DNA from: SAR86 cluster bacterium
GTDB taxonomy: Bacteria; Pseudomonadota; Gammaproteobacteria; Magnimaribacterales; D2472
Assembly (NCBI GenBank): GCA_003331545.1
Contig: QOPC01000001.1
Coordinates: 297-64,296, forward strand
Direction of reading: 5' to 3'
DNA: 64,000 bases
Shown one piece after another: positions 8,966 through 29,348 of this stretch. How positions within the stretch are numbered: position 1 is the first letter of the stretch; each line of letters opens with the position of its first letter. The position numbers and the translations under genes were made by a program. The notes under the pieces were generated by a model, which was not told where the DNA came from, did not search any database, and saw nothing but the letters and a program-made list of their open reading frames with translations.

Positions 8966-9433
8966 GTGAATTTTGAAACAATTATATTAATTCTTCAAAC
9001 TGTTGGACCTTTTACAGTTCTGGTAACCGTTTATTTCTTGGTTACAGAACTGAGAGAACAAAACAGAGTTGCGCGAGCTAATGCAAGGCAAAATATTGCT
9101 GATTCTCATCAGAAGGTTGCTCTTGCAGGCATGAAGCCTATCCTTGTAAATACTAAGATTAAACTTAGAAATAATGAAGAGTTAACGAAAGAAGAAAATG
9201 CTGTTTATTTAACATATTTTAGCGTGATGCTAAGAGCTAGGGAAAATCAGTTCTATCAATTTAAAATAGGAATGCTGGATGAAGAAGAGTGGAATGCAAT
9301 GCTTGTTTCATTCAAAACGTTGTTTAAAGAACCAAAGCATCTTGAGATATGGGAGTTTATTAAAATTACTTTTGCCGAAGATTTTGTTGAGCTGGTTGAT
9401 GAACAAATTAAACAGAGCAAGCTATATGGATAA
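8966..9433 (+). CDS. hypothetical N-terminally membrane-anchored helical protein
   Basis: 155 aa with a GTG start. One N-terminal TM helix (IILILQTVGPFTVLVTVYFLV) followed by a charged helical domain. It ends 5 bp before the EAL gene. No family recognised. Confidence 0.5.
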   Translation: MNFETIILILQTVGPFTVLVTVYFLVTELREQNRVARANARQNIADSHQKVALAGMKPILVNTKIKLRNNEELTKEENAVYLTYFSVMLRARENQFYQFKIGMLDEEEWNAMLVSFKTLFKEPKHLEIWEFIKITFAEDFVELVDEQIKQSKLYG

Positions 9434-9438
9434 GAATA

Positions 9439-10533
9439 ATGCATTCTGACAAAGAATTAAGCTACTTAACTAAATCTCTATTGCATCATCCAAGTCCATA
9501 CATTATCTATGAGCTTGATGGGTCTATTGCTTGGGCAAATCTCGCTGCAAATTATATTTTCAACTTATCAGGCTTGGATGAAATATCAGTTATTAAAATT
9601 GATGATCAGGTCAAAAACAATTTTGGTGATCTAGAATCCATTGCTCTTTATTACGATACTCCAATTGAAATTTCCTTAAGAGAGATAAATTTTTTAATGA
9701 GAACAAGAGTCCACATGATACCGGTTGATGAGTCGAAGGGCATCATGTTGATAGAGTTGTTATGCTCTTCTAGGTCTGGATTAGATGCCTTAAGAAAGGC
9801 AATAGATTGCATAGAGCATAAAAGGATAGAATTGGCATATCAAAAACAAGTAGATCTTGAGACCAATGAAGTTACTGGCATCGAAGCTCTATTAAGACTT
9901 CAAGATGGCGAGGGTGGGTATTTACCAAATGATGAGATTATTCCCCAGATTGAAGGTGAGAGCTTATTTTCTTTGGTCGTTTTAGAATCATTGGTCCAGT
10001 TAGAAAAATTTTTTGCAATAAAAGATGAGATAGGTTTCAAAGATGCAACTTTGTATTTAAATGTTTCAGCTCACACAATAATGCATCCTGATTTTTGCTC
10101 AATTTTTACTGATTTTGTCGACAAGCACAATCTCTCACCAAATCAATTTGGTTTAGAGGTAACCGAAACTGCTGAGCTATCAGATATAAGCATTGCGTCT
10201 AAGTCTTTAAGTTTGTTAAAAGCAAAGGGCATAAAAATTGCTCTAGATGATTTTGGTGCTGGGTACGCCTCATTAAAATATGTAAGAGATCTTCCAATTG
10301 ATGTGGTGAAATTAGATAAGCACTTTACGTTTAATGTTTCAGATCCCTCTACGGCTAGGCTTATCAGCTTTGTTTCAGAGGTTTGCGAGGATCTTGACTT
10401 GGAGATGATTGGAGAGGGCATTGAGACAGAAGAAGATAAGAAAATGATGTTAGATCTTGGATGCAAAATTGGTCAAGGGTATTTAATGCATCGCCCTGAT
10501 TTTTTGGACTCATTTCAAGTTAAGGAAACATAG
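9439..10533 (+). CDS. EAL-domain c-di-GMP phosphodiesterase with N-terminal PAS-like region
   Basis: EAL signature residues are present: GIEALLRL, YLNVS, EVTET, DDFGAGYASL, KLDK, EGIETEE, GQGY. The protein looks catalytically competent. Confidence 0.88.
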   Translation: MHSDKELSYLTKSLLHHPSPYIIYELDGSIAWANLAANYIFNLSGLDEISVIKIDDQVKNNFGDLESIALYYDTPIEISLREINFLMRTRVHMIPVDESKGIMLIELLCSSRSGLDALRKAIDCIEHKRIELAYQKQVDLETNEVTGIEALLRLQDGEGGYLPNDEIIPQIEGESLFSLVVLESLVQLEKFFAIKDEIGFKDATLYLNVSAHTIMHPDFCSIFTDFVDKHNLSPNQFGLEVTETAELSDISIASKSLSLLKAKGIKIALDDFGAGYASLKYVRDLPIDVVKLDKHFTFNVSDPSTARLISFVSEVCEDLDLEMIGEGIETEEDKKMMLDLGCKIGQGYLMHRPDFLDSFQVKET

Positions 10534-10536
10534 ATT

Positions 10537-12021
10537 ATGGATAAGCTTACTCCAAAAGATACCTCTAAGGGCGCAGAAGAAATTGTACTAACTCAAATTA
10601 AACAAGATTTTATTACGCCTGCAAATGCCATTTTTGATTATGTCGATATAGTTGAAAAATTTCTTAATGATGCCGAGTTAGTATCTGATGATGAAATAGC
10701 TCAGATAAAATCATCATGCACTCATTTAATTGAACAATATGAGGTAGCATTTGTACAAAATACTGGAGCTAATGCTGAAGACGCAAAAAAATCTCCCGAA
10801 GAATACTCTGAGCTTCGTCACAATTTAAGAACTCCACTCAATGCCATTATCGGCTACAGTGAAATATTAATGGAAGATTATGAAGATGACTTAGATGAAT
10901 CTGCCATTAAAGATTTTCAACAAATCATCAATTTGGCAAGGGAGACGGAAAAAGCTATTGAGGTCTTTGTTGATTACATTAGAGGCGAAGCCATAGATCC
11001 AAATAATAATAATGCTTCTAATCAACTTGAATCTGCAGAATCATTATTTAAATCTCTTGGAGACATAGAGTATTCAATCTCACTTGATGATGATATCAAG
11101 GAATCAGATATTTTGATCGTTGACGACAATGTAACTAACTGTGAAGTTCTGCAAAGACGTTTATCAATGCAAGGCCTTACTTGTAGAACTTCATATGATG
11201 GGAAAACCGCGTTAGAAGAAGTCTTTAAAAAGACCCCCGATCTTATTCTTTTGGATGTAATTTTGCCAGACATCAATGGTCTAGAGCTCTTAAAAACTTT
11301 TAGGAAGGAACATAACGCTGAATCACTTCCAGTGATAATGGTTTCAGCTTTTAATGACGTTGATAGTATTTCTAAGTGTATTCAACTCGGGGCTCAAGAT
11401 TATTTACCAAAACCTATTAATGGCACAATTCTATTGGCAAAGGTTGTAGCTGCTTTAGAAAGAAAGTTTTGGAGAGAGCGAGAAAAAGAGCTTGTCAATG
11501 AGTTACATATTCAAGCAACTACTGATCAACTTACAGGAATCTTTAATCGCCGAGTTGTCTTTGAGGCTCTAGATGAAGCAATGGATAAAGCTAATGAATC
11601 TCAGGAAAGACAATTTACTACGATTATGTTTGATATTGATTTTTTCAAACAAGTTAATGACAACTATGGTCATGCAGGCGGCGATGCAGTGCTAATTGAA
11701 TTTGCTAAATTGTTACAAACAGAAATTACATCGCCAAATATTGTTGGTAGGATAGGTGGCGAAGAGTTTTTAGCAATTTTATATTTGAATGAAGATCAAG
11801 CAGCTGAATTTTGTAAAAAATTAATTATAAAAATCAATAATAATACTGTTCACTTTGACGGTATTGATATTAAAATTACTTCAAGCGGCGGCGTTGCATT
11901 TTCAACAGAAACTGAAACCTCTGCTGACCTTACGAACAAAGCTGATGAGCGCCTATACGAGGCAAAGAAATCAGGCAGAAATAGATTTAAATTGATAGAC
12001 ACCGAATTAGTAGGAGACTAA
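10537..12021 (+). CDS. response-regulator diguanylate cyclase (H-box/HisKA-like - REC - GGDEF)
   Basis: N-terminal H-box LRHNLRTPLNAIIGYSEIL with no ATPase domain. REC domain (ILIVDDN...DLILLDVILPDINGLE...KP). GGDEF domain with an intact GGEEF site and upstream RxxD-like context. Confidence 0.9.
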   Translation: MDKLTPKDTSKGAEEIVLTQIKQDFITPANAIFDYVDIVEKFLNDAELVSDDEIAQIKSSCTHLIEQYEVAFVQNTGANAEDAKKSPEEYSELRHNLRTPLNAIIGYSEILMEDYEDDLDESAIKDFQQIINLARETEKAIEVFVDYIRGEAIDPNNNNASNQLESAESLFKSLGDIEYSISLDDDIKESDILIVDDNVTNCEVLQRRLSMQGLTCRTSYDGKTALEEVFKKTPDLILLDVILPDINGLELLKTFRKEHNAESLPVIMVSAFNDVDSISKCIQLGAQDYLPKPINGTILLAKVVAALERKFWREREKELVNELHIQATTDQLTGIFNRRVVFEALDEAMDKANESQERQFTTIMFDIDFFKQVNDNYGHAGGDAVLIEFAKLLQTEITSPNIVGRIGGEEFLAILYLNEDQAAEFCKKLIIKINNNTVHFDGIDIKITSSGGVAFSTETETSADLTNKADERLYEAKKSGRNRFKLIDTELVGD

Positions 12022-12023
12022 TA

Positions 12024-12386
12024 ATGGCAAAGATACTATATGTTGAAGATAACGAAATGAATCGTGACATGCTTTCAAGGCGTCTAACTAGAAGGGGCTA
12101 TGACATCATTATGGCATTTGATGGTCAGGCTGGTTTGGATATGATGAGAAATGATTCACCTGATATTGTCTTGATGGATATGGGATTGCCAATTCTTGAT
12201 GGTTGGGAAGCAACAATTCAAGCCAAGGCCGATGATTCCATTAACTCTATTCCTATAATAGCTTTGACAGCTCACGCATTAGAGTCAGACAAGCAGAAGG
12301 CTTTGGAATGTGGTGCTGATGATTTTGATACAAAACCAGTTGATTTCAAAAGATTGCTTGAAAAAATAGAAGCGCTGCTTAGTTAA
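12024..12386 (+). CDS. single-domain (CheY-like) response regulator
   Basis: 120 aa consisting of a REC domain only: ILYVEDNEMN, DIVLMDMGLPILDG, ALTAHA, TKP. Confidence 0.9.
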   Translation: MAKILYVEDNEMNRDMLSRRLTRRGYDIIMAFDGQAGLDMMRNDSPDIVLMDMGLPILDGWEATIQAKADDSINSIPIIALTAHALESDKQKALECGADDFDTKPVDFKRLLEKIEALLS

Positions 12387-12389
12387 TAA

Positions 12390-15368
12390 TTATTTTTTTA
12401 CAATCCCTTGTATCATTTTAGATAGATTATCCATTGATACGTCATCCTTTTTAACTAAGCCTACAACCCTTTCTTTTAAGAGATCTTCTTGAACGTCTGT
12501 TAAATCTTTTCCAGAGAAAACCAATACTGGGGCTCTTTTGTCCTCAGGAACATCTTTGATGTAGTTATCAAGAAATTCAAACCCATCCATGCGAGGCATT
12601 TCAAGATCGAGGATAATTAAAGCTGGCTCATCTTTCGTTCGCTCTAGGCCTTCCTTCCCATCTCTTGCATCAATTGGTCTGTAGCCTGCATCTTTAAGAA
12701 GTCTAGAAAGCAACTCTCTTACATCCTTATCATCATCAATGACAAGAACCTTTTGATCTTTTCCACCGGTACCAAGAAGTCTCTGAATGGTATTTACAAA
12801 ATGTGTTCTATCGATAGGTTTTGTTAAATAATCATTTGCACCAAGTGAGGCTGCAAGATTAGATTGATTTAATTGACTAATCATAATAACTGGAATGTCC
12901 TTAAGTTCTGAGTCAGTCTTACATTCTTTAAGCAATGACCATCCATCTCTTCCAGGCATCAAGACATCCAGCAGAATTAATTTCGGCTTTACTTCCCGGA
13001 TTAATTCCATACCTTTTTCACTATTTGTTGCCCCAATCAGAGTTAAATTAAGTTTGGATATTGTTCTTTTTATTAGGTCATGCATTGCGACATCATCATC
13101 AACGAGAACCACAAGATTATCGTCAGCATCTAAATTAATAACATTGCTATCGACTTCATCTTCATTATATTCAGGGCATTCTCTAGGAACTGAAAGGGTA
13201 AAAACTGAGCCTTTCCCTTCTTCACTGGTTACAACAACATCACCGCCCATCATTTCTGCAAATTTTTTGGAAATAGGTAATCCCAATCCAGTACCACCAT
13301 AATTGGCAGATGTTGATCGTTCAGCTTGAGTGTATTCCTCAAAAACTTTTGCAACACCTTCTGCACTCATTCCTGCTCCGGTATCAATAACAGCAAAGTC
13401 TATAAACTCAATCTTTCCATCTAGTCGGGACTTAACATCAAGAGTCACAGTCCCATTTTTTGTAAATTTAAATCCATTGCTTAAAAAATTTGTAAGACAT
13501 TGCCTTAGTTTTGTTTCATCTTGGGACATTGACCCCATAGCACCATCTAAGTTAATAACGAAACCATTGTCATTTTTAGCAGCCAATGGTTCTGACACAT
13601 CTTTGATGGTTTGAATCATATGTTCAATTTCAAAACTGGTAATAAATAATTCCATTTTTCCAGCTTCGATTTTAGATAAATCTAGAATATTGTTGATCAG
13701 TGATAATAGATGAGATCCAGAGGATGTAATTTTCTTTAAATCTGGCAGTAGGTCATCGTACCCAAGATCTTCACAATCTTCATAGAGCATTTCTCCGTAT
13801 CCCAAAATGGCGTTAAGCGGTGTTCTAAGTTCGTGACTCATGTTTGCAAAGAATTTAGTTTTTTGATCACTCGCATCTCTTGCTTCATCTCGAGCTGTTT
13901 CCATTTCACCAGTTCTTGCATCGATTAAACCATTCACTTCATCTGACATTCGAGAAAAAGCTACTAACATTAGTTCCACTGAAGCTTCTTCGCTTGAGTT
14001 TCTGTCAGAGTTATCCGCAAGATCTTTCATTTTCTTAATGTCATTAAGAATTAGTGTTCTTGCACTTCCATCTAATTGATCAGCTAATGCTGACATTTTT
14101 TCAATAATAACTTCGTCTCTTTCATGCCTTCTTTCTGCTTGCTCAGCTCGGATTGATTCCATTTCAACAAGATGAGATTTATATGACTTTAAGGCAGTAG
14201 AGAGTTGTCCAACTTCATCGCGCTCTGAGGCCAGTAGGCCTTTTCTGATAGGCATTTCTTGTGTGTGATCACCTTTGGTCAATCCTTCAAGAACTTCAAT
14301 GGCCTTGGTGATTCCTCCGAATGTCCTTGTGGTAATAAAAGCAATTAAAGAAATAATGAAAATAACAAAAGAAATTGCAGCAATATAAGTGAGGTTTAAG
14401 ACATTCGCTGCTCTAAGAATATTCTCTCTTTCATCTTTAAAAACATAGAGCTGAGCCTCATCAGCAGATAGAGATGAGCTTAGTTGAAGCAGGGTAACCG
14501 AGGTTCCTAGTTCAGTATCTTTTTGTGAATATCTTGACCCATTAGTCTCTTTATAAGAAGCGGCTTTGTCGGTTAATTTATTAAAGTTTTCTAAATCAAA
14601 TAAATTATCTTCTGTATCACCAAATTGCTGATAATAATCATTTAGAGAAATTAAACCAGATTCTGTATTAATCGCAGTTCTTACTTCAAACTCATCCTCG
14701 AAAACTTCAAGACCTTTTCTTATATCAACACCCAAGCTAACAATTGCTAATGTCTCGCCCTCTACTTTTACAGGAAATGAAAGAGCCTGATTTAGCGTAG
14801 CTGCTTGCTCATCATTGCTATCTCTAATTTTTACAATCGATTGCCTGGGTCTTGTTGAGGCATCTTTTAAATAAGAGTCAAGATAACTAAAGAAATCTGG
14901 TCTTGCAGCCGGTGAGCAGGGATCAACTCCTAATAGATCTAAAGCACCTCCACAGTAAATTCTCTCCCCGGATGGAAAATAAGCCATTACATAACTTAGG
15001 TTTCCATAATCCAGATCCTCTTCAAAGAAAAGTTCAATTAAATATTGTGCATCTCCAATTCTGTCTGCGCTGATAGTATCAAGCAAAGGATTTGTAAAGA
15101 TATTACTTGAAGCAACTTCGTCAAGAAAAATTTCTGAATCAGGATCCCAGAATGATGCATTCTCTCCTGTTACCGGCAGCCATTTTGACATTACGTCAAA
15201 AGATTTATTGTAAGTTTGATACCAAGCAGATTCGTATAATGTTAAAAGCGATTCATTGGATGAATCTTCCTGAATATTTTCTCTGTAACCAAATGAGAAT
15301 ATAAAGATTGCAGCAACAAGAACATTGCCAATAACCCCAAACAAGAGTAACTGGAGTCTTATCGGCAT
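12390..15368 (-). CDS. hybrid sensor histidine kinase (TM - ~300 aa extracytoplasmic domain - TM - HAMP - HisKA - HATPase - REC - REC)
   Basis: H-box SHELRTPLNAILGYGEML, N/G boxes (NFLSNGFKFT, DTGAGM, GGTGLGL), and two receiver domains (VLVDDD...LLDVLMPGRDG and VLVIDDD...ILDLEMPRMDG). Two TM helices flank a large sensor domain. Confidence 0.92.
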   Translation of the reverse strand: MPIRLQLLLFGVIGNVLVAAIFIFSFGYRENIQEDSSNESLLTLYESAWYQTYNKSFDVMSKWLPVTGENASFWDPDSEIFLDEVASSNIFTNPLLDTISADRIGDAQYLIELFFEEDLDYGNLSYVMAYFPSGERIYCGGALDLLGVDPCSPAARPDFFSYLDSYLKDASTRPRQSIVKIRDSNDEQAATLNQALSFPVKVEGETLAIVSLGVDIRKGLEVFEDEFEVRTAINTESGLISLNDYYQQFGDTEDNLFDLENFNKLTDKAASYKETNGSRYSQKDTELGTSVTLLQLSSSLSADEAQLYVFKDERENILRAANVLNLTYIAAISFVIFIISLIAFITTRTFGGITKAIEVLEGLTKGDHTQEMPIRKGLLASERDEVGQLSTALKSYKSHLVEMESIRAEQAERRHERDEVIIEKMSALADQLDGSARTLILNDIKKMKDLADNSDRNSSEEASVELMLVAFSRMSDEVNGLIDARTGEMETARDEARDASDQKTKFFANMSHELRTPLNAILGYGEMLYEDCEDLGYDDLLPDLKKITSSGSHLLSLINNILDLSKIEAGKMELFITSFEIEHMIQTIKDVSEPLAAKNDNGFVINLDGAMGSMSQDETKLRQCLTNFLSNGFKFTKNGTVTLDVKSRLDGKIEFIDFAVIDTGAGMSAEGVAKVFEEYTQAERSTSANYGGTGLGLPISKKFAEMMGGDVVVTSEEGKGSVFTLSVPRECPEYNEDEVDSNVINLDADDNLVVLVDDDVAMHDLIKRTISKLNLTLIGATNSEKGMELIREVKPKLILLDVLMPGRDGWSLLKECKTDSELKDIPVIMISQLNQSNLAASLGANDYLTKPIDRTHFVNTIQRLLGTGGKDQKVLVIDDDKDVRELLSRLLKDAGYRPIDARDGKEGLERTKDEPALIILDLEMPRMDGFEFLDNYIKDVPEDKRAPVLVFSGKDLTDVQEDLLKERVVGLVKKDDVSMDNLSKMIQGIVKK

Positions 15369-15397: not shown

Positions 15398-15772
15398 TCA
15401 GTCAGCAAGTTTAAAAGTAAGGTCAATCTGAACGTTGTTGACCTTAACTGAAGTTCCATTGTAAGTTGGTGGTTGATATAAAAATTTTCTTACAGCTTTA
15501 ATCGCAGCGCGGTCAAAGACACCAGCAGGGCTACTTTCAACAACATATGGATCAAGGACTGAACCATCAGTATCAACATCAAACTCGAGTCGAACAGATC
15601 CCTCAACTCCAAGTCTGATAGCTCTTCTTGGATATTCAGGTGCAGGATTGGATACTCTGGTTACTTCAATTTCAGTGCCTTCCTCTCCAACATAACCTTT
15701 ATCACCAGCAAACGCAGGTAGAGTAAGTAAAAATGCAAAAAGAAAAAATATAAGAGAATTTAATGGTTTCAT
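15398..15772 (-). CDS. secreted TonB C-terminal-domain-only protein
   Basis: 124 aa. Signal peptide MKPLNSLIFFLFAFLLTLPAFA, then a TonB_C signature (PEYPRRAIRLGVEGSVRLEFDVDTDGSV...FDRAAIKAVRKFLYQP). No TM anchor and no Pro-rich spacer. It lies 29 bp upstream of the hybrid kinase on the same strand. Confidence 0.75.
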   Translation of the reverse strand: MKPLNSLIFFLFAFLLTLPAFAGDKGYVGEEGTEIEVTRVSNPAPEYPRRAIRLGVEGSVRLEFDVDTDGSVLDPYVVESSPAGVFDRAAIKAVRKFLYQPPTYNGTSVKVNNVQIDLTFKLAD

Positions 15773-15914: not shown

Positions 15915-16316
15915 ATGAAAAAAGTAAAAGATCATTTAAATGAACAAAAATTTTGGGACATTTTTACTATTTCCGAGAATTCAAGCTTATTTGAAGCCGC
16001 ATCATTGATGAACAAAAATAAAATTGGTGCTTTAATGATTTGCAGGAGTGGGACCGAGAGCCATTTATCAAAATCTTCTATATTAGGAATTTTAACAGAA
16101 AGAGACCTTGTTTATGCATTATCTGGAGGTCCTAAAACTTTTGAAGCAAAAACTGTGAATGATGTCATGACCAGAAAACTGATCCATACATGTCCCGAAA
16201 CTACTAATTCGGAAGCAAAAGAGCTCATGCTTAGTAATCAAATTAGGCATTTACCTGTTTTTTCAGATGAACATCTTGTTGGAATTATCTCCATGCGAGA
16301 TGTTTTTAAAGCCTAG
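15915..16316 (+). CDS. stand-alone CBS-pair domain protein
   Basis: 133 aa with two CBS repeats (GALMIC...GILTERDL and VMTRKLIHT...RHLPVF...GIISMRDV). Confidence 0.8.
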   Translation: MKKVKDHLNEQKFWDIFTISENSSLFEAASLMNKNKIGALMICRSGTESHLSKSSILGILTERDLVYALSGGPKTFEAKTVNDVMTRKLIHTCPETTNSEAKELMLSNQIRHLPVFSDEHLVGIISMRDVFKA

Positions 16317-26435: not shown

Positions 26436-27068
26436 ATGAAAATAGCTATTCTGGGAGGAACAGGTTCTTTGGGTAAAGGGTTGTCATCTCGGTGGATCAA
26501 AGCTGGTCATGATCTAATCATCGGAAGTCGAGACTTATCAAAAGCTCAAGAGGTTGCAGTCGAGCTGGGGCTAGATGCATCGGCAGGAATGTTGAATATA
26601 GATGCAGCTTCACATTGTGAACTTGCTTGCTTAACAGTTCCCTTTGCTCATCAAGAAGCAACTTTATTGAGCATTGAAGGTGCCTTAGCTGACAAAATAA
26701 TGATTGATGCAACTGTCCCATTAATGCCTCCTAAAGTTATGAGAGTTCAATTGCCTATTGAGGGCTCAGCTGCTCTTAAAGCTCAATCACTATTGGGTGA
26801 AAGCACTACAGTAATTTCTGCTTTTCAAAATATCTCAGCCGAACTGTTACAAACAGATGCTGATATAGATTGCGATGTATTGGTTGCTGGTGATTTTATT
26901 GAAGCAAGAAATACGGTAATTTCATTGGCCAAAGACGCTGGTTTGACAGCTTGGCATGCTGGTCCATTGTGCAATTCTGCTGCTGCAGAAGCTTTGACTT
27001 CGATATTGATTGCAATCAATAAAAAACATTCACTTGCTCATTCTGGAATTAGAATTACTGGGCATTAA
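26436..27068 (+). CDS. npdG: NADPH-dependent F420 reductase (Fno/NpdG family)
   Basis: 210 aa. N-terminal Rossmann motif MKIAILGGTGSLGKGLSSRW..GH.LIIGSRD is typical of NpdG/Fno. First gene of the cof/fbi operon. Confidence 0.85.
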   Translation: MKIAILGGTGSLGKGLSSRWIKAGHDLIIGSRDLSKAQEVAVELGLDASAGMLNIDAASHCELACLTVPFAHQEATLLSIEGALADKIMIDATVPLMPPKVMRVQLPIEGSAALKAQSLLGESTTVISAFQNISAELLQTDADIDCDVLVAGDFIEARNTVISLAKDAGLTAWHAGPLCNSAAAEALTSILIAINKKHSLAHSGIRITGH

Positions 27069-28772: not shown

Positions 28773-29348
28773 ATGACAGTTTCAGCATTTGTTCCTATTA
28801 AAAAATTTTCTAGTTCTAAAGAAAGGCTATCAAATGTTCTTGATTCAATTGATCGTTCAAAGCTTGCCGAACAAATGGCAAAACATACTATAAAAACTCT
28901 TTTTGATTCTAATATTTGTGATTCTATTACCATTGTTACAAATGATAAGGATTTAAGATTTATCAATACTGTTTCATATTTTACAGAATTACCTTTAAAT
29001 CAAGCCTTACATGAAGCTATTGCATCAAAACCTGACCATGACATTACTTTGGTTATGCATGCTGATCTTCCAAGAATCAATGAAAAAGATCTTCAGAAAT
29101 TTAAAGATTCGTTTACAAAAACTAAGATCAGTATAATTTCTGATCTTCACAAGATTGGAACAAACTGTTTAATGTATGACTCATCATTGAATTTTAATCT
29201 TAAGTTTGGCGAAGATAGCTATGCTCTATTTATTAAAGAGTTTGAAAGTAATGAATTAATGCATCAAGAGATATGCTTACCAAGTCTTCAAGATGACCTT
29301 GACTCCGAGGAAGATTACTTCAAACTAAATCAATACATTAATGGATAG
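28773..29348 (+). CDS. cofC: phospholactate/phosphoenolpyruvate guanylyltransferase CofC/FbiD
   Basis: 191 aa. N-terminal FVPIKKFSSSKERLS (the iPvK...K.RL motif of the CofC/MobA-like fold). The ATG directly follows the cofD TAA. Confidence 0.78.
   Translation: MTVSAFVPIKKFSSSKERLSNVLDSIDRSKLAEQMAKHTIKTLFDSNICDSITIVTNDKDLRFINTVSYFTELPLNQALHEAIASKPDHDITLVMHADLPRINEKDLQKFKDSFTKTKISIISDLHKIGTNCLMYDSSLNFNLKFGEDSYALFIKEFESNELMHQEICLPSLQDDLDSEEDYFKLNQYING

Follow-up and report, generated by a model that had tools for sequence, protein, structure and literature searches.

A tandem DHp module without an ATPase domain in a SAR86 REC-GGDEF response regulator: a candidate built-in histidine phosphotransfer station

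The stretch of DNA considered here (64,000 nucleotides, positions 297 to 64,296 of contig QOPC01000001.1, assembly GCA_003331545.1, from a SAR86 cluster bacterium; the whole stretch is called the window below) encodes a response regulator in which a receiver domain (REC) and a GGDEF diguanylate cyclase domain are preceded by a helical N-terminal module. We are confident that the first 150 residues of this protein represent two tandem hairpins of the dimerisation and histidine phosphotransfer (DHp, HisKA-type) kind without a catalytic ATPase domain, most likely folded into a four-helix bundle within one chain. Judged by its sequence, the module is a member of the HisKA family but not a kinase. 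As to its function, the chances are in our view about even that the bundle is a built-in histidine phosphotransfer station, similar to Spo0B or to a histidine phosphotransfer (HPt) domain, which would feed the receiver of its own chain. The two hairpins, named here unit 1 and unit 2, differ in the residue at the phospho-His position, which is Gln23 in the former and His95 in the latter (Table 1).

Domain composition of the cyclase protein

In searches with Pfam models, HisKA (PF00512) was found on residues 93-148, i.e., on unit 2, with 31.1 bits against the gathering cut-off of 26.9, Response_reg on residues 192-303 (E=1.6e-27), and GGDEF on residues 327-483 (E=5.8e-39). For HATPase_c and Hpt, the reporting level was set at E<=0.1. 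No HATPase_c match was obtained in the cyclase protein at this level, and REC begins 40 residues past the DHp, which agrees with the original prediction that no ATP-binding domain follows the H-box and that a receiver comes next. Hpt (PF01627) was not matched in the protein at this level either; there is no HxxKG motif, and the residues around His95 read HNLRTP. A domain similar to the catalytic and ATP-binding (CA) domain of kinases is likewise absent from this protein according to Pfam.

The mimicry of the neighbouring hybrid kinase’s H-box, noticed earlier at residues ~90-150, is borne out by BLASTP, in which the His95 helix shows 46% identity over 41 residues to the H-box of this kinase (E=2e-9), with His95 aligned to His512 of the kinase. 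The CAC codon at 10819-10821 is that of His95, as had been stated, and the span 10591-10986, to which the module was originally assigned, corresponds to residues 19-150; this span is correct but short, the full module covering residues 11-150 (10567-10986). For unit 2, a profile search of the PDB gave matches to the DHp domains of HK853 and EnvZ. The RHNLRTP box of this unit contains Asn96 at the position where the HisKA H-E/D-L-R-T-P box has an acidic residue.

Unit 1 is not reported by Pfam as HisKA, and it is known via BLASTP, hhalign, and the homology of relatives. Its residues ~16-39 (IVLTQIKQDFITPANAIFDYVDIV) match unit 2 in BLASTP with E=8e-5, the profiles of SAR86 unit 1 and unit 2 align in hhalign with E=1.9e-4 over 21 columns, and the BLASTP match of unit 1 to the kinase H-box has E=0.028. 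In distant relatives, the first-unit position is occupied by an ordinary His-containing HisKA unit, which in some of them is recognized by Pfam, and therefore the homology of unit 1 does not depend on the weak internal match alone. The original prediction regarded this region as a second, degenerate copy of the H-box helices. That it is a real unit, with Gln23 at the His position, was right, but simple degeneration does not describe it, as the Gln is invariant in SAR86 and is present in 27 distant clusters.

The domains following the module are those of an intact REC-GGDEF protein. The receiver possesses the acidic pocket, the acceptor Asp, and the Ser and Lys residues by which receivers are judged, and the GGDEF domain has an intact GG(D/E)EF active site (GGEEF). 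When the sequence upstream of GGEEF was read directly, the RxxD I-site was absent. The NCBIfam model of PleD gave a partial match (229.7 vs. the cut-off of 474), and for the DgcR model the score was 172 vs. 500.

Predicted structure

The AlphaFold2 (AF2) model of residues 1-185, calculated with 24 homologues, shows the four-helix bundle that the original prediction would lead one to expect. The helices span residues 11-45, 51-75, 87-114, and 121-149, with the predicted local distance difference test (pLDDT) of 95-97, and the monomer has the predicted template modelling score (pTM) of 0.72; with ~45 disordered residues included, such a pTM implies that the four helices must form one rigid body. 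Helices 2 and 3 are joined by an 11-residue connector (76-86) at one end of the bundle, where the former stops and the latter begins, and this modelled geometry is what a single-chain version of the DHp dimer needs. The two hairpins probably constitute a single-chain pseudo-dimer, an intramolecular four-helix bundle, of which, in the model, the two faces differ, invariant Gln23 being located on one and invariant His95 on the other.

The comparison of the 1-185 model with the PDB by Foldseek gave no match at E<=0.001. The best matches were monomeric four-helix bundles (Dps, Csp, the McpS sensor, and de novo bundles), none of them significant; this result supports the fold class suggested by the model and gives no functional lead. 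No solved PDB chain with a tandem DHp was found in the sequence search conducted with the SAR86 profile and with the distant H/H protein P0120. When the model was extended to residues 1-313, identical helices were obtained, the tether at residues 152-181 had pLDDT <50, and pTM was 0.50. With no fixed arrangement of REC and bundle, the extended model is uninformative on transfer in cis.

Conservation within SAR86

The genome scan yielded 80 loci from as many species-level genomes, almost all of which carry the label SAR86, and 77 full-length sequences were aligned (76 SAR86 orthologues and the window copy, the latter 97% identical in the N-terminal domain to that of the SAR86 single-cell genome AG-313-D11). 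The whole LRHNLRTPLNAIIGY box, including H95, N96, R98, T99, and P100, is invariant in 77/77, and so are Q20, I21, K22, Q23, F25, P28, A31, and Y35 of unit 1. In unit 2, 34 of the 64 positions do not vary. The mean conservation amounts to 0.73 for unit 1, 0.84 for unit 2, 0.87 for REC, and 0.67 for GGDEF; past residue 86, the tether is the least conserved segment. D196, D240, S270, and K292 of the receiver are invariant, and GGEEF is conserved. The helical module is under selection as strong as that acting on the receiver and therefore is not a decaying remnant; because the H-box and Q23 are held so tightly, the role of a spacer or of a remnant is unlikely. At the +4 position of unit 1, Thr is found in 54 sequences and Ala in 23.

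A split gene at one locus (L004), with HisKA and REC-GGDEF in separate open reading frames (ORFs), might have been taken for a two-protein form of the system occurring in nature; this was rejected, as the long-read contig concerned has broken EAL and kinase genes too. Broken EAL, cyclase, and kinase genes are found likewise in L006 and L077, which are long-read contigs of metagenome-assembled genomes, and the splits at all three loci are probably frameshift errors of assembly.

The tandem pair in other bacteria

The profile of the N-terminal module was compared with 1.84 billion representative proteins, which resulted in 492 matches at E<=1e-10, and the detailed survey comprised the 142 best matches (representative clusters) beyond the first set. 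Two H-box units placed 64-76 residues apart (mode 73) are present in 116/142 clusters, and the tandem pair occurs in 61 of the 67 surveyed proteins that are at least 300 aa long. In the 116 clusters, a receiver comes after the pair in 71, the fragment ends there in 45, and an ATPase domain follows in none. The output located past the receiver is a class III nucleotidyl cyclase in 26, a complete kinase core in 14, and GGDEF in 2, with none detected in 13; at one locus it is a PP2C phosphatase. The kinase core lies in the same polypeptide in P0111, P0112, and P0116.

The two His positions read H/H in 53 clusters and Q/H, as in the window, in 27, and in the others His is followed by Tyr, Phe, Leu, Ala, or another non-His residue; at least one His per pair is retained in almost all 116 pairs. 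Outside SAR86, most members carry the full kinase-type H-E/D-L-R-T-P box. Such patterns agree with what a pseudo-dimeric bundle would show if one of its former active sites can be lost or repurposed: one functional His per bundle would suffice, in line with the H/H, Q/H, and H/non-His combinations. Three whole pairs (27-160, 198-320, and 388-520) precede the receiver of P0107, a protein of 906 aa, which indicates that duplication proceeds by whole pairs. The cyclases P0109 and P0110 have, like P0107, three complete pairs one after another, with His in each second unit. Another observation concerns P0024, P0026, P0033, P0048, and P0088, which end in SLIHI or TVSYTHL; these C-termini look like translated sequencing-adapter sequence at contig ends and hence like artefacts.

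In databases, the proteins of this family are named only “response regulator” or “adenylate cyclase”. No description of tandem, dual, or duplicated HisKA/DHp modules was found in the literature, of which subscription journals were largely outside the coverage, and in the publications on HisKA-REC(-GGDEF) and HisKA-without-HATPase proteins the module is undescribed, with only general remarks made on the latter group. The architecture had been suspected to be uncharacterized; this was upheld as far as the literature is concerned, but it is widespread and not peculiar to one gene. HisKA proteins without HATPase are described as unstudied, and Galperin and colleagues proposed phosphatase activity for them (PMC5847659), whereas the P2CS database files HisKA-only proteins under phosphotransfer proteins (PMC2716373).

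Gene block and partner proteins

The cyclase gene belongs to a block of seven genes (Table 1), syntenic in SAR86 loci of the 80 species genomes scanned wherever the flanks reach. The 155-aa protein is present in nearly all of these loci, the EAL gene is syntenic in those whose flank extends to it, and the stand-alone receiver in all of them. The EAL enzyme is the likely counter-enzyme of cyclic di-GMP (c-di-GMP) synthesis. Residues 1-116 of the EAL protein (9439-9786) have no Pfam match and contain conserved motifs; they could form a divergent PAS-like sensor. The TonB_C and CBS-pair proteins might contribute to sensory input.

Table 1. Coordinates, in the window, of the cyclase gene, its domains and key codons, and the neighbouring genes
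Feature	Position	Strand	Basis or remark
Tandem-DHp (without ATPase)-REC-GGDEF response regulator, 494 aa	10537..12021	+	ORF; Pfam
DHp-like hairpin unit 1, residues 11-76, pseudo-H-box QIKQDFITPANAIFDY	10567..10764	+	AF2 helices, BLASTP, hhalign
Gln23 codon CAA, phospho-His position of unit 1	10603..10605	+	Sequence; alignment
DHp hairpin unit 2, residues 87-150, H-box LRHNLRTPLNAIIGY	10795..10986	+	Pfam HisKA, PDB profile matches
His95 codon CAC, candidate phospho-acceptor, within SELRHNLRTPLNAIIGYSEIL	10819..10821	+	Sequence; alignment to kinase His512
Flexible tether of ~40 residues (151-189), bundle to REC	10987..11103	+	pLDDT <50 at 152-181
Receiver domain, residues 190-307; acceptor Asp240 at 11254-11256	11104..11457	+	Pfam Response_reg
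GGDEF diguanylate cyclase domain, residues 325-485; GGEEF 407-411 (11755-11769)	11509..11991	+	Pfam GGDEF
155-aa protein, hydrophobic N-terminus, first gene of the block	8966..9433	+	No Pfam match
EAL phosphodiesterase, 364 aa, immediately upstream	9439..10533	+	Pfam EAL 1.1e-51
Stand-alone receiver, 120 aa	12024..12386	+	Pfam Response_reg
Hybrid sensor kinase, 992 aa, transmembrane (TM)-sensor-TM-HAMP-like region, then DHp-CA-REC-REC	12390..15368	-	Pfam
Kinase DHp	13653-13874	-	His512 at 13833-13835
Kinase CA	13173-13532	-	Pfam HATPase_c
Kinase REC1, Asp801	12774-13118	-	Pfam Response_reg
Kinase REC2, Asp921	12393-12752	-	Pfam Response_reg
Short TonB_C-only protein, signal-peptide-like N-terminus	15398-15772	-	Syntenic with kinase in most SAR86 loci
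CBS-pair protein	15915-16316	+	Syntenic with kinase in most SAR86 loci

By their residues, both receivers of the hybrid kinase are phospho-competent, and no Hpt was found by Pfam in the window’s kinase at E<=0.1. Its SAR86 orthologues are all 992-999 aa long; the motifs of the His and of the two receiver Asp residues are invariant in them, and none has an added HPt. The genomic context was also examined for nine distant tandem-DHp members. A hybrid kinase of DHp-CA-REC-REC composition adjoins the gene at P0216, P0218, P0247, P0119, P0194, and P0112, that is, in all contexts with enough flank; four of these distant kinases were scanned in full by Pfam, with no Hpt at E<=0.1. A single receiver of ~121 aa adjoins the gene in eight of the nine contexts, two of them short contigs, and the ninth (P0165) is a 3.6-kb contig on which the adjacent gene is EAL only.

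Across distant bacteria, the stand-alone receiver is the most conserved component of the cassette. At the loci where small receivers of distant taxa were compared (L085, L086, L088, L090, L091, L093, L094, and L095), they are 58-66% identical to the window copy (phmmer E=1e-36 to 1e-55), and the helical modules have diverged far more than the small receiver. At least 7937 database clusters match the stand-alone receiver at E<=1e-30, and it may form an orthologous group of its own, as yet without a name, among relay receivers; the search for its homologues gave no named model-organism orthologue among the best 120 matches, which were SAR86-like only. The motif (D/E)DNxxNRDxLsRRL in helix alpha1 is nearly identical in the internal and the stand-alone receiver across the family. 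Helix alpha1 is the helix with which a receiver usually docks on DHp, and as a sequence feature the common motif fits the docking of both receivers on one kind of helical bundle. On the DHp side, partner specificity is usually set by the alpha1 positions +7, +8, +11, and +12 after His; unit 2 has N, A, G, and Y there, and so has the kinase DHp.

On the metagenomic contig L093 (9916-13271, minus strand), three proteins with tandem DHp, REC, and different outputs (GAF-PAS-cyclase, cyclase, and SpoIIE/PP2C) are encoded, with a single dual-REC hybrid kinase and a single orthologous small receiver beside them, an arrangement that suggests branching of the relay. Elsewhere in the window, the ORFs at 26436-27068 and 28773-29348 match the families of F420-dependent NADP oxidoreductase and CofC-like guanylyltransferase, which hints that this SAR86 genome encodes metabolism related to coenzyme F420.

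Proposed relay and alternative explanations

We infer the phosphotransfer steps, the order of the receivers, and the role of Gln23 discussed here from the domains, their conservation, the predicted fold, and the composition of the cassette. It is proposed that the membrane hybrid kinase would autophosphorylate on His512, from which the phosphoryl group would pass to the Asp of the kinase receivers or of the stand-alone receiver. The phosphorylated Asp might then donate to His95 of the single-chain bundle, and phosphorylated His95 to Asp240 of the tethered receiver, whose phosphorylation would cause the cyclase to dimerise and to make c-di-GMP in the manner of PleD, WspR, and DgcR; the neighbouring EAL enzyme would degrade the c-di-GMP signal. 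The counterpart of such a pathway in Bacillus would be KinA-Spo0F-Spo0B-Spo0A, with the Spo0B-like step being single-chain and fused to the terminal regulator. The components of a relay, namely a hybrid kinase with its own REC, another His carrier, and the final REC, are encoded together in the SAR86 loci and in six loci from other bacteria, and the invariance of His95, the dual-REC kinase without HPt, and their recurring pairing all fit a His-Asp-His-Asp relay. A relay of this kind was already outlined in the original prediction; its kinase indeed has two phospho-competent receivers and no HPt, but the stand-alone receiver at 12024-12386, which probably belongs in the relay, had been omitted. 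It had been proposed, too, that a dimerisation domain like those of Spo0B and ChpT substitutes for the missing HPt. A HisKA relative without ATPase beside a kinase without HPt is what was found, but the predicted structure is a single-chain bundle rather than a dimerisation domain of that type.

Several points weigh against this proposal. The kinase could phosphorylate the terminal receivers directly, which would make the second His unnecessary. The scan for HPt, in which none was found, covered only the gene cluster and ten small ORFs of the window. The AF2 model of residues 1-313 shows no phosphotransfer-competent docking of REC on His95. Modelling of a monomer by AF2 tends to pack amphipathic helices within the chain, so that a homodimer with two stacked bundles is also possible. 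Invariant Thr99, corresponding to T/N of the HisKA phosphatase motif, fits a phosphatase equally well.

The phosphatase is the explanation that competes most seriously with the phosphotransfer station, although on balance we consider it doubtful; the three discussed after it are less likely still. It assumes, by analogy to RedE, that the DHp bundle dephosphorylates its own receiver, the stand-alone receiver, or both, and in this way resets the cyclase, while the hybrid kinase phosphorylates the receivers directly. Apart from Thr99, the T/N residue of the E/DxxT/N motif, it can be supported by the replacement of the acidic autokinase residue with invariant Asn96 in SAR86 and by the amide of Gln23 at the His position of unit 1, invariant in SAR86 and recurrent in the 27 distant clusters mentioned above. 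Catalytic amides do the phosphatase job in CheZ, CheX, and HisKA_3 phosphatases, and NtrB with His changed to Asn keeps its phosphatase activity. The RedCDEF system offers a precedent with a matching cast (PMC2755868), and the activity is also the one proposed by Galperin and colleagues for HisKA proteins without HATPase (PMC5847659). His95 phosphorylation by a kinase receiver might gate the phosphatase, as proposed for RedE. However, phosphatase chemistry does not require the strict invariance of His95, most members outside SAR86 keep the full kinase-type box, and the relay better explains why the partner kinase consistently lacks HPt. A phosphatase site in unit 1 that would act via the +4 Thr was considered separately; it is weakened by the Ala found at this position in 23/77 sequences, as is the phosphatase explanation itself on that face.

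Given that GGDEF enzymes must dimerise and that helical bundles are common in dimerisation and signal transmission, the module might only dimerise the cyclase, or dock or auto-inhibit REC, with no chemistry on His95. A homodimeric arrangement is compatible with AF2, and some members without His in either unit, for example those with N/Q (P0140) and L/M (P0146), could be understood in this way. Nevertheless, we regard such a scaffold as unlikely: the H-box is invariant residue by residue (with His, Arg, Thr, and Pro among them) in the 77 sequences, the His kept in at least one unit of almost all 116 pairs is the signature of an active site and not of a coiled-coil interface, and enzymes of the PleD, WspR, and DgcR type dimerise via REC and stalk without a module of this kind. 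Slightly less probable again is the view of the module as an extra substrate helix, on which the CA domain of the neighbouring kinase would phosphorylate His95 in trans, followed by the transfer from His95 to the tethered receiver. Phosphorylation in trans has its precedents, CheA4 acting on CheA3-P1 and EnvZ domain B on isolated domain A. The closeness of the unit 2 H-box to that of the kinase (46% over 41 aa), the acidic residue beside His, used in autophosphorylation chemistry and retained in most relatives, and the full kinase core in the chain of P0111, P0112, and P0116 all speak for it. In SAR86, however, invariant Asn replaces this acidic residue, a bundle closed within one chain is unable to form with the kinase DHp the heterodimer needed to place CA, and the two receivers of the kinase and the conserved stand-alone receiver are left unexplained. 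RetS-like heterodimerisation with the kinase DHp, considered as well, was ranked low, as the closed intramolecular bundle leaves no free hairpin. Finally, the missing His in the first copy and the missing CA domain might suggest the decayed remnant of a histidine kinase, with the ATPase domain gone and the rest drifting. This explanation is effectively refuted by the conservation data, unit 2 being about as conserved as REC and more than GGDEF among the 77 sequences, and the architecture with its constant spacing is kept in more than 100 diverged clusters.

The phosphotransfer station can also be placed in a broader and more tentative frame, to which we give somewhat less than an even chance. 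The tandem DHp would represent an unrecognized class of asymmetric single-chain phosphotransfer modules, similar to HPt and derived independently from the kinase dimerisation domain, that is present in a widespread cassette. The His face would transfer the phosphoryl group and the Gln face would serve as a phosphatase or for docking, in a push-pull arrangement. The cassette would consist of a two-REC sensor kinase without HPt, a conserved single receiver, and at least one tandem-DHp-REC-output protein, with c-di-GMP, cAMP/cGMP, PP2C, or further kinases as outputs.

Significance

Two His carriers are usually described in phosphorelays, the dimeric DHp of kinases, with its Spo0B and ChpT derivatives, and the monomeric HPt. 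If the proposal is correct, then a third carrier would be added to these two by the single-chain DHp pair with its fused receivers. Such a pair would also show how an obligate homodimer becomes an asymmetric monomer, with its former active sites diverging (His vs. Gln, or Tyr/Phe/Leu), and would explain how many “orphan” hybrid kinases without HPt reach their targets. The annotation of the family proteins now named “response regulator” or “adenylate cyclase” could be corrected. SAR86 is among the most abundant marine bacterial groups, and the seven-gene block probably serves these bacteria as a main pathway linking an extracellular signal to c-di-GMP. For specialists in two-component systems, the tandem-DHp module is of real interest.

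Comparison with known systems

Residues 190-485 of the SAR86 protein correspond to a canonical phospho-activated REC-GGDEF protein with GGEEF, as known from PleD, WspR, and DgcR. These enzymes have no N-terminal tandem DHp; PleD has a second REC instead. The DHp of EnvZ without its ATPase (domain A), as studied in the Inouye laboratory, reportedly accepts phosphate, transfers it to a receiver, and dephosphorylates the phosphorylated receiver. In contrast to the natural single-chain module described here, domain A is an engineered homodimeric fragment. The Myxococcus RedCDEF system is similar in its components, a kinase, two RECs, a His protein, and a single REC, and RedE is described as a protein resembling histidine kinases that does not autophosphorylate, takes phosphate from the dual-REC protein, and dephosphorylates the single REC (PMC2755868). 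RedE differs in being described as a separate protein, with the proposed role of phosphatase, and not as a tandem hairpin pair fused to an output regulator (PMC2755868).

Spo0B of Bacillus and ChpT of Caulobacter share with the SAR86 module, as predicted and proposed here, the DHp-type hairpin carrying phospho-His in a four-helix bundle, the lack of autophosphorylation, and the shuttling from REC to REC. At the level of the cassette, the kinase, single REC, His bundle, and REC-output protein resemble KinA-Spo0F-Spo0B-Spo0A. However, Spo0B and ChpT are separate proteins, homodimers of one hairpin with a degenerate CA-like alpha/beta domain, whereas the SAR86 module comprises two hairpins in one chain, has no CA-like domain, presents Gln and His faces, and is fused to the terminal regulator. 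The NCBIfam model of ChpT gave 15.7 bits vs. the cut-off of 225, on unit 1 only (residues 18-91), and ChpT in the PDB was matched with E=0.3.

HPt domains (ArcB-C, Ypd1, and LuxU; PF01627) are monomeric four-helix bundles with a phosphorylatable His acting between two REC steps. The module of this SAR86 family, with its single candidate His, is predicted and proposed to resemble them, and it would fill the HPt role that the hybrid kinase without HPt needs. The two differ in that no sequence relationship exists and that the SAR86 helices originate in the duplication of a HisKA hairpin bearing the H-E/D/N-L-R-T-P box. If the relay is correct, then the module is probably an independent route to an HPt-like device, nearer to the monomeric HPt than to the dimerisation domain of Spo0B and ChpT.

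A further comparison is that with HmrB of Caulobacter, a putative atypical HPT with required His residues and a hairpin predicted to form a four-helix bundle (PMC11481889). Owing to Spo0B, ChpT, and putatively HmrB, there is a precedent for a hairpin-based phosphotransferase bundle (PMC11481889). Like the SAR86 module, HmrB is encoded beside a hybrid kinase, in a pathway controlling c-di-GMP (PMC11481889), but it is a free-standing 108-aa single hairpin, a predicted homodimer with no HisKA H-box, and it is not fused to REC-GGDEF. By this analogy, the SAR86 module would be the fused, single-chain counterpart of HmrB.

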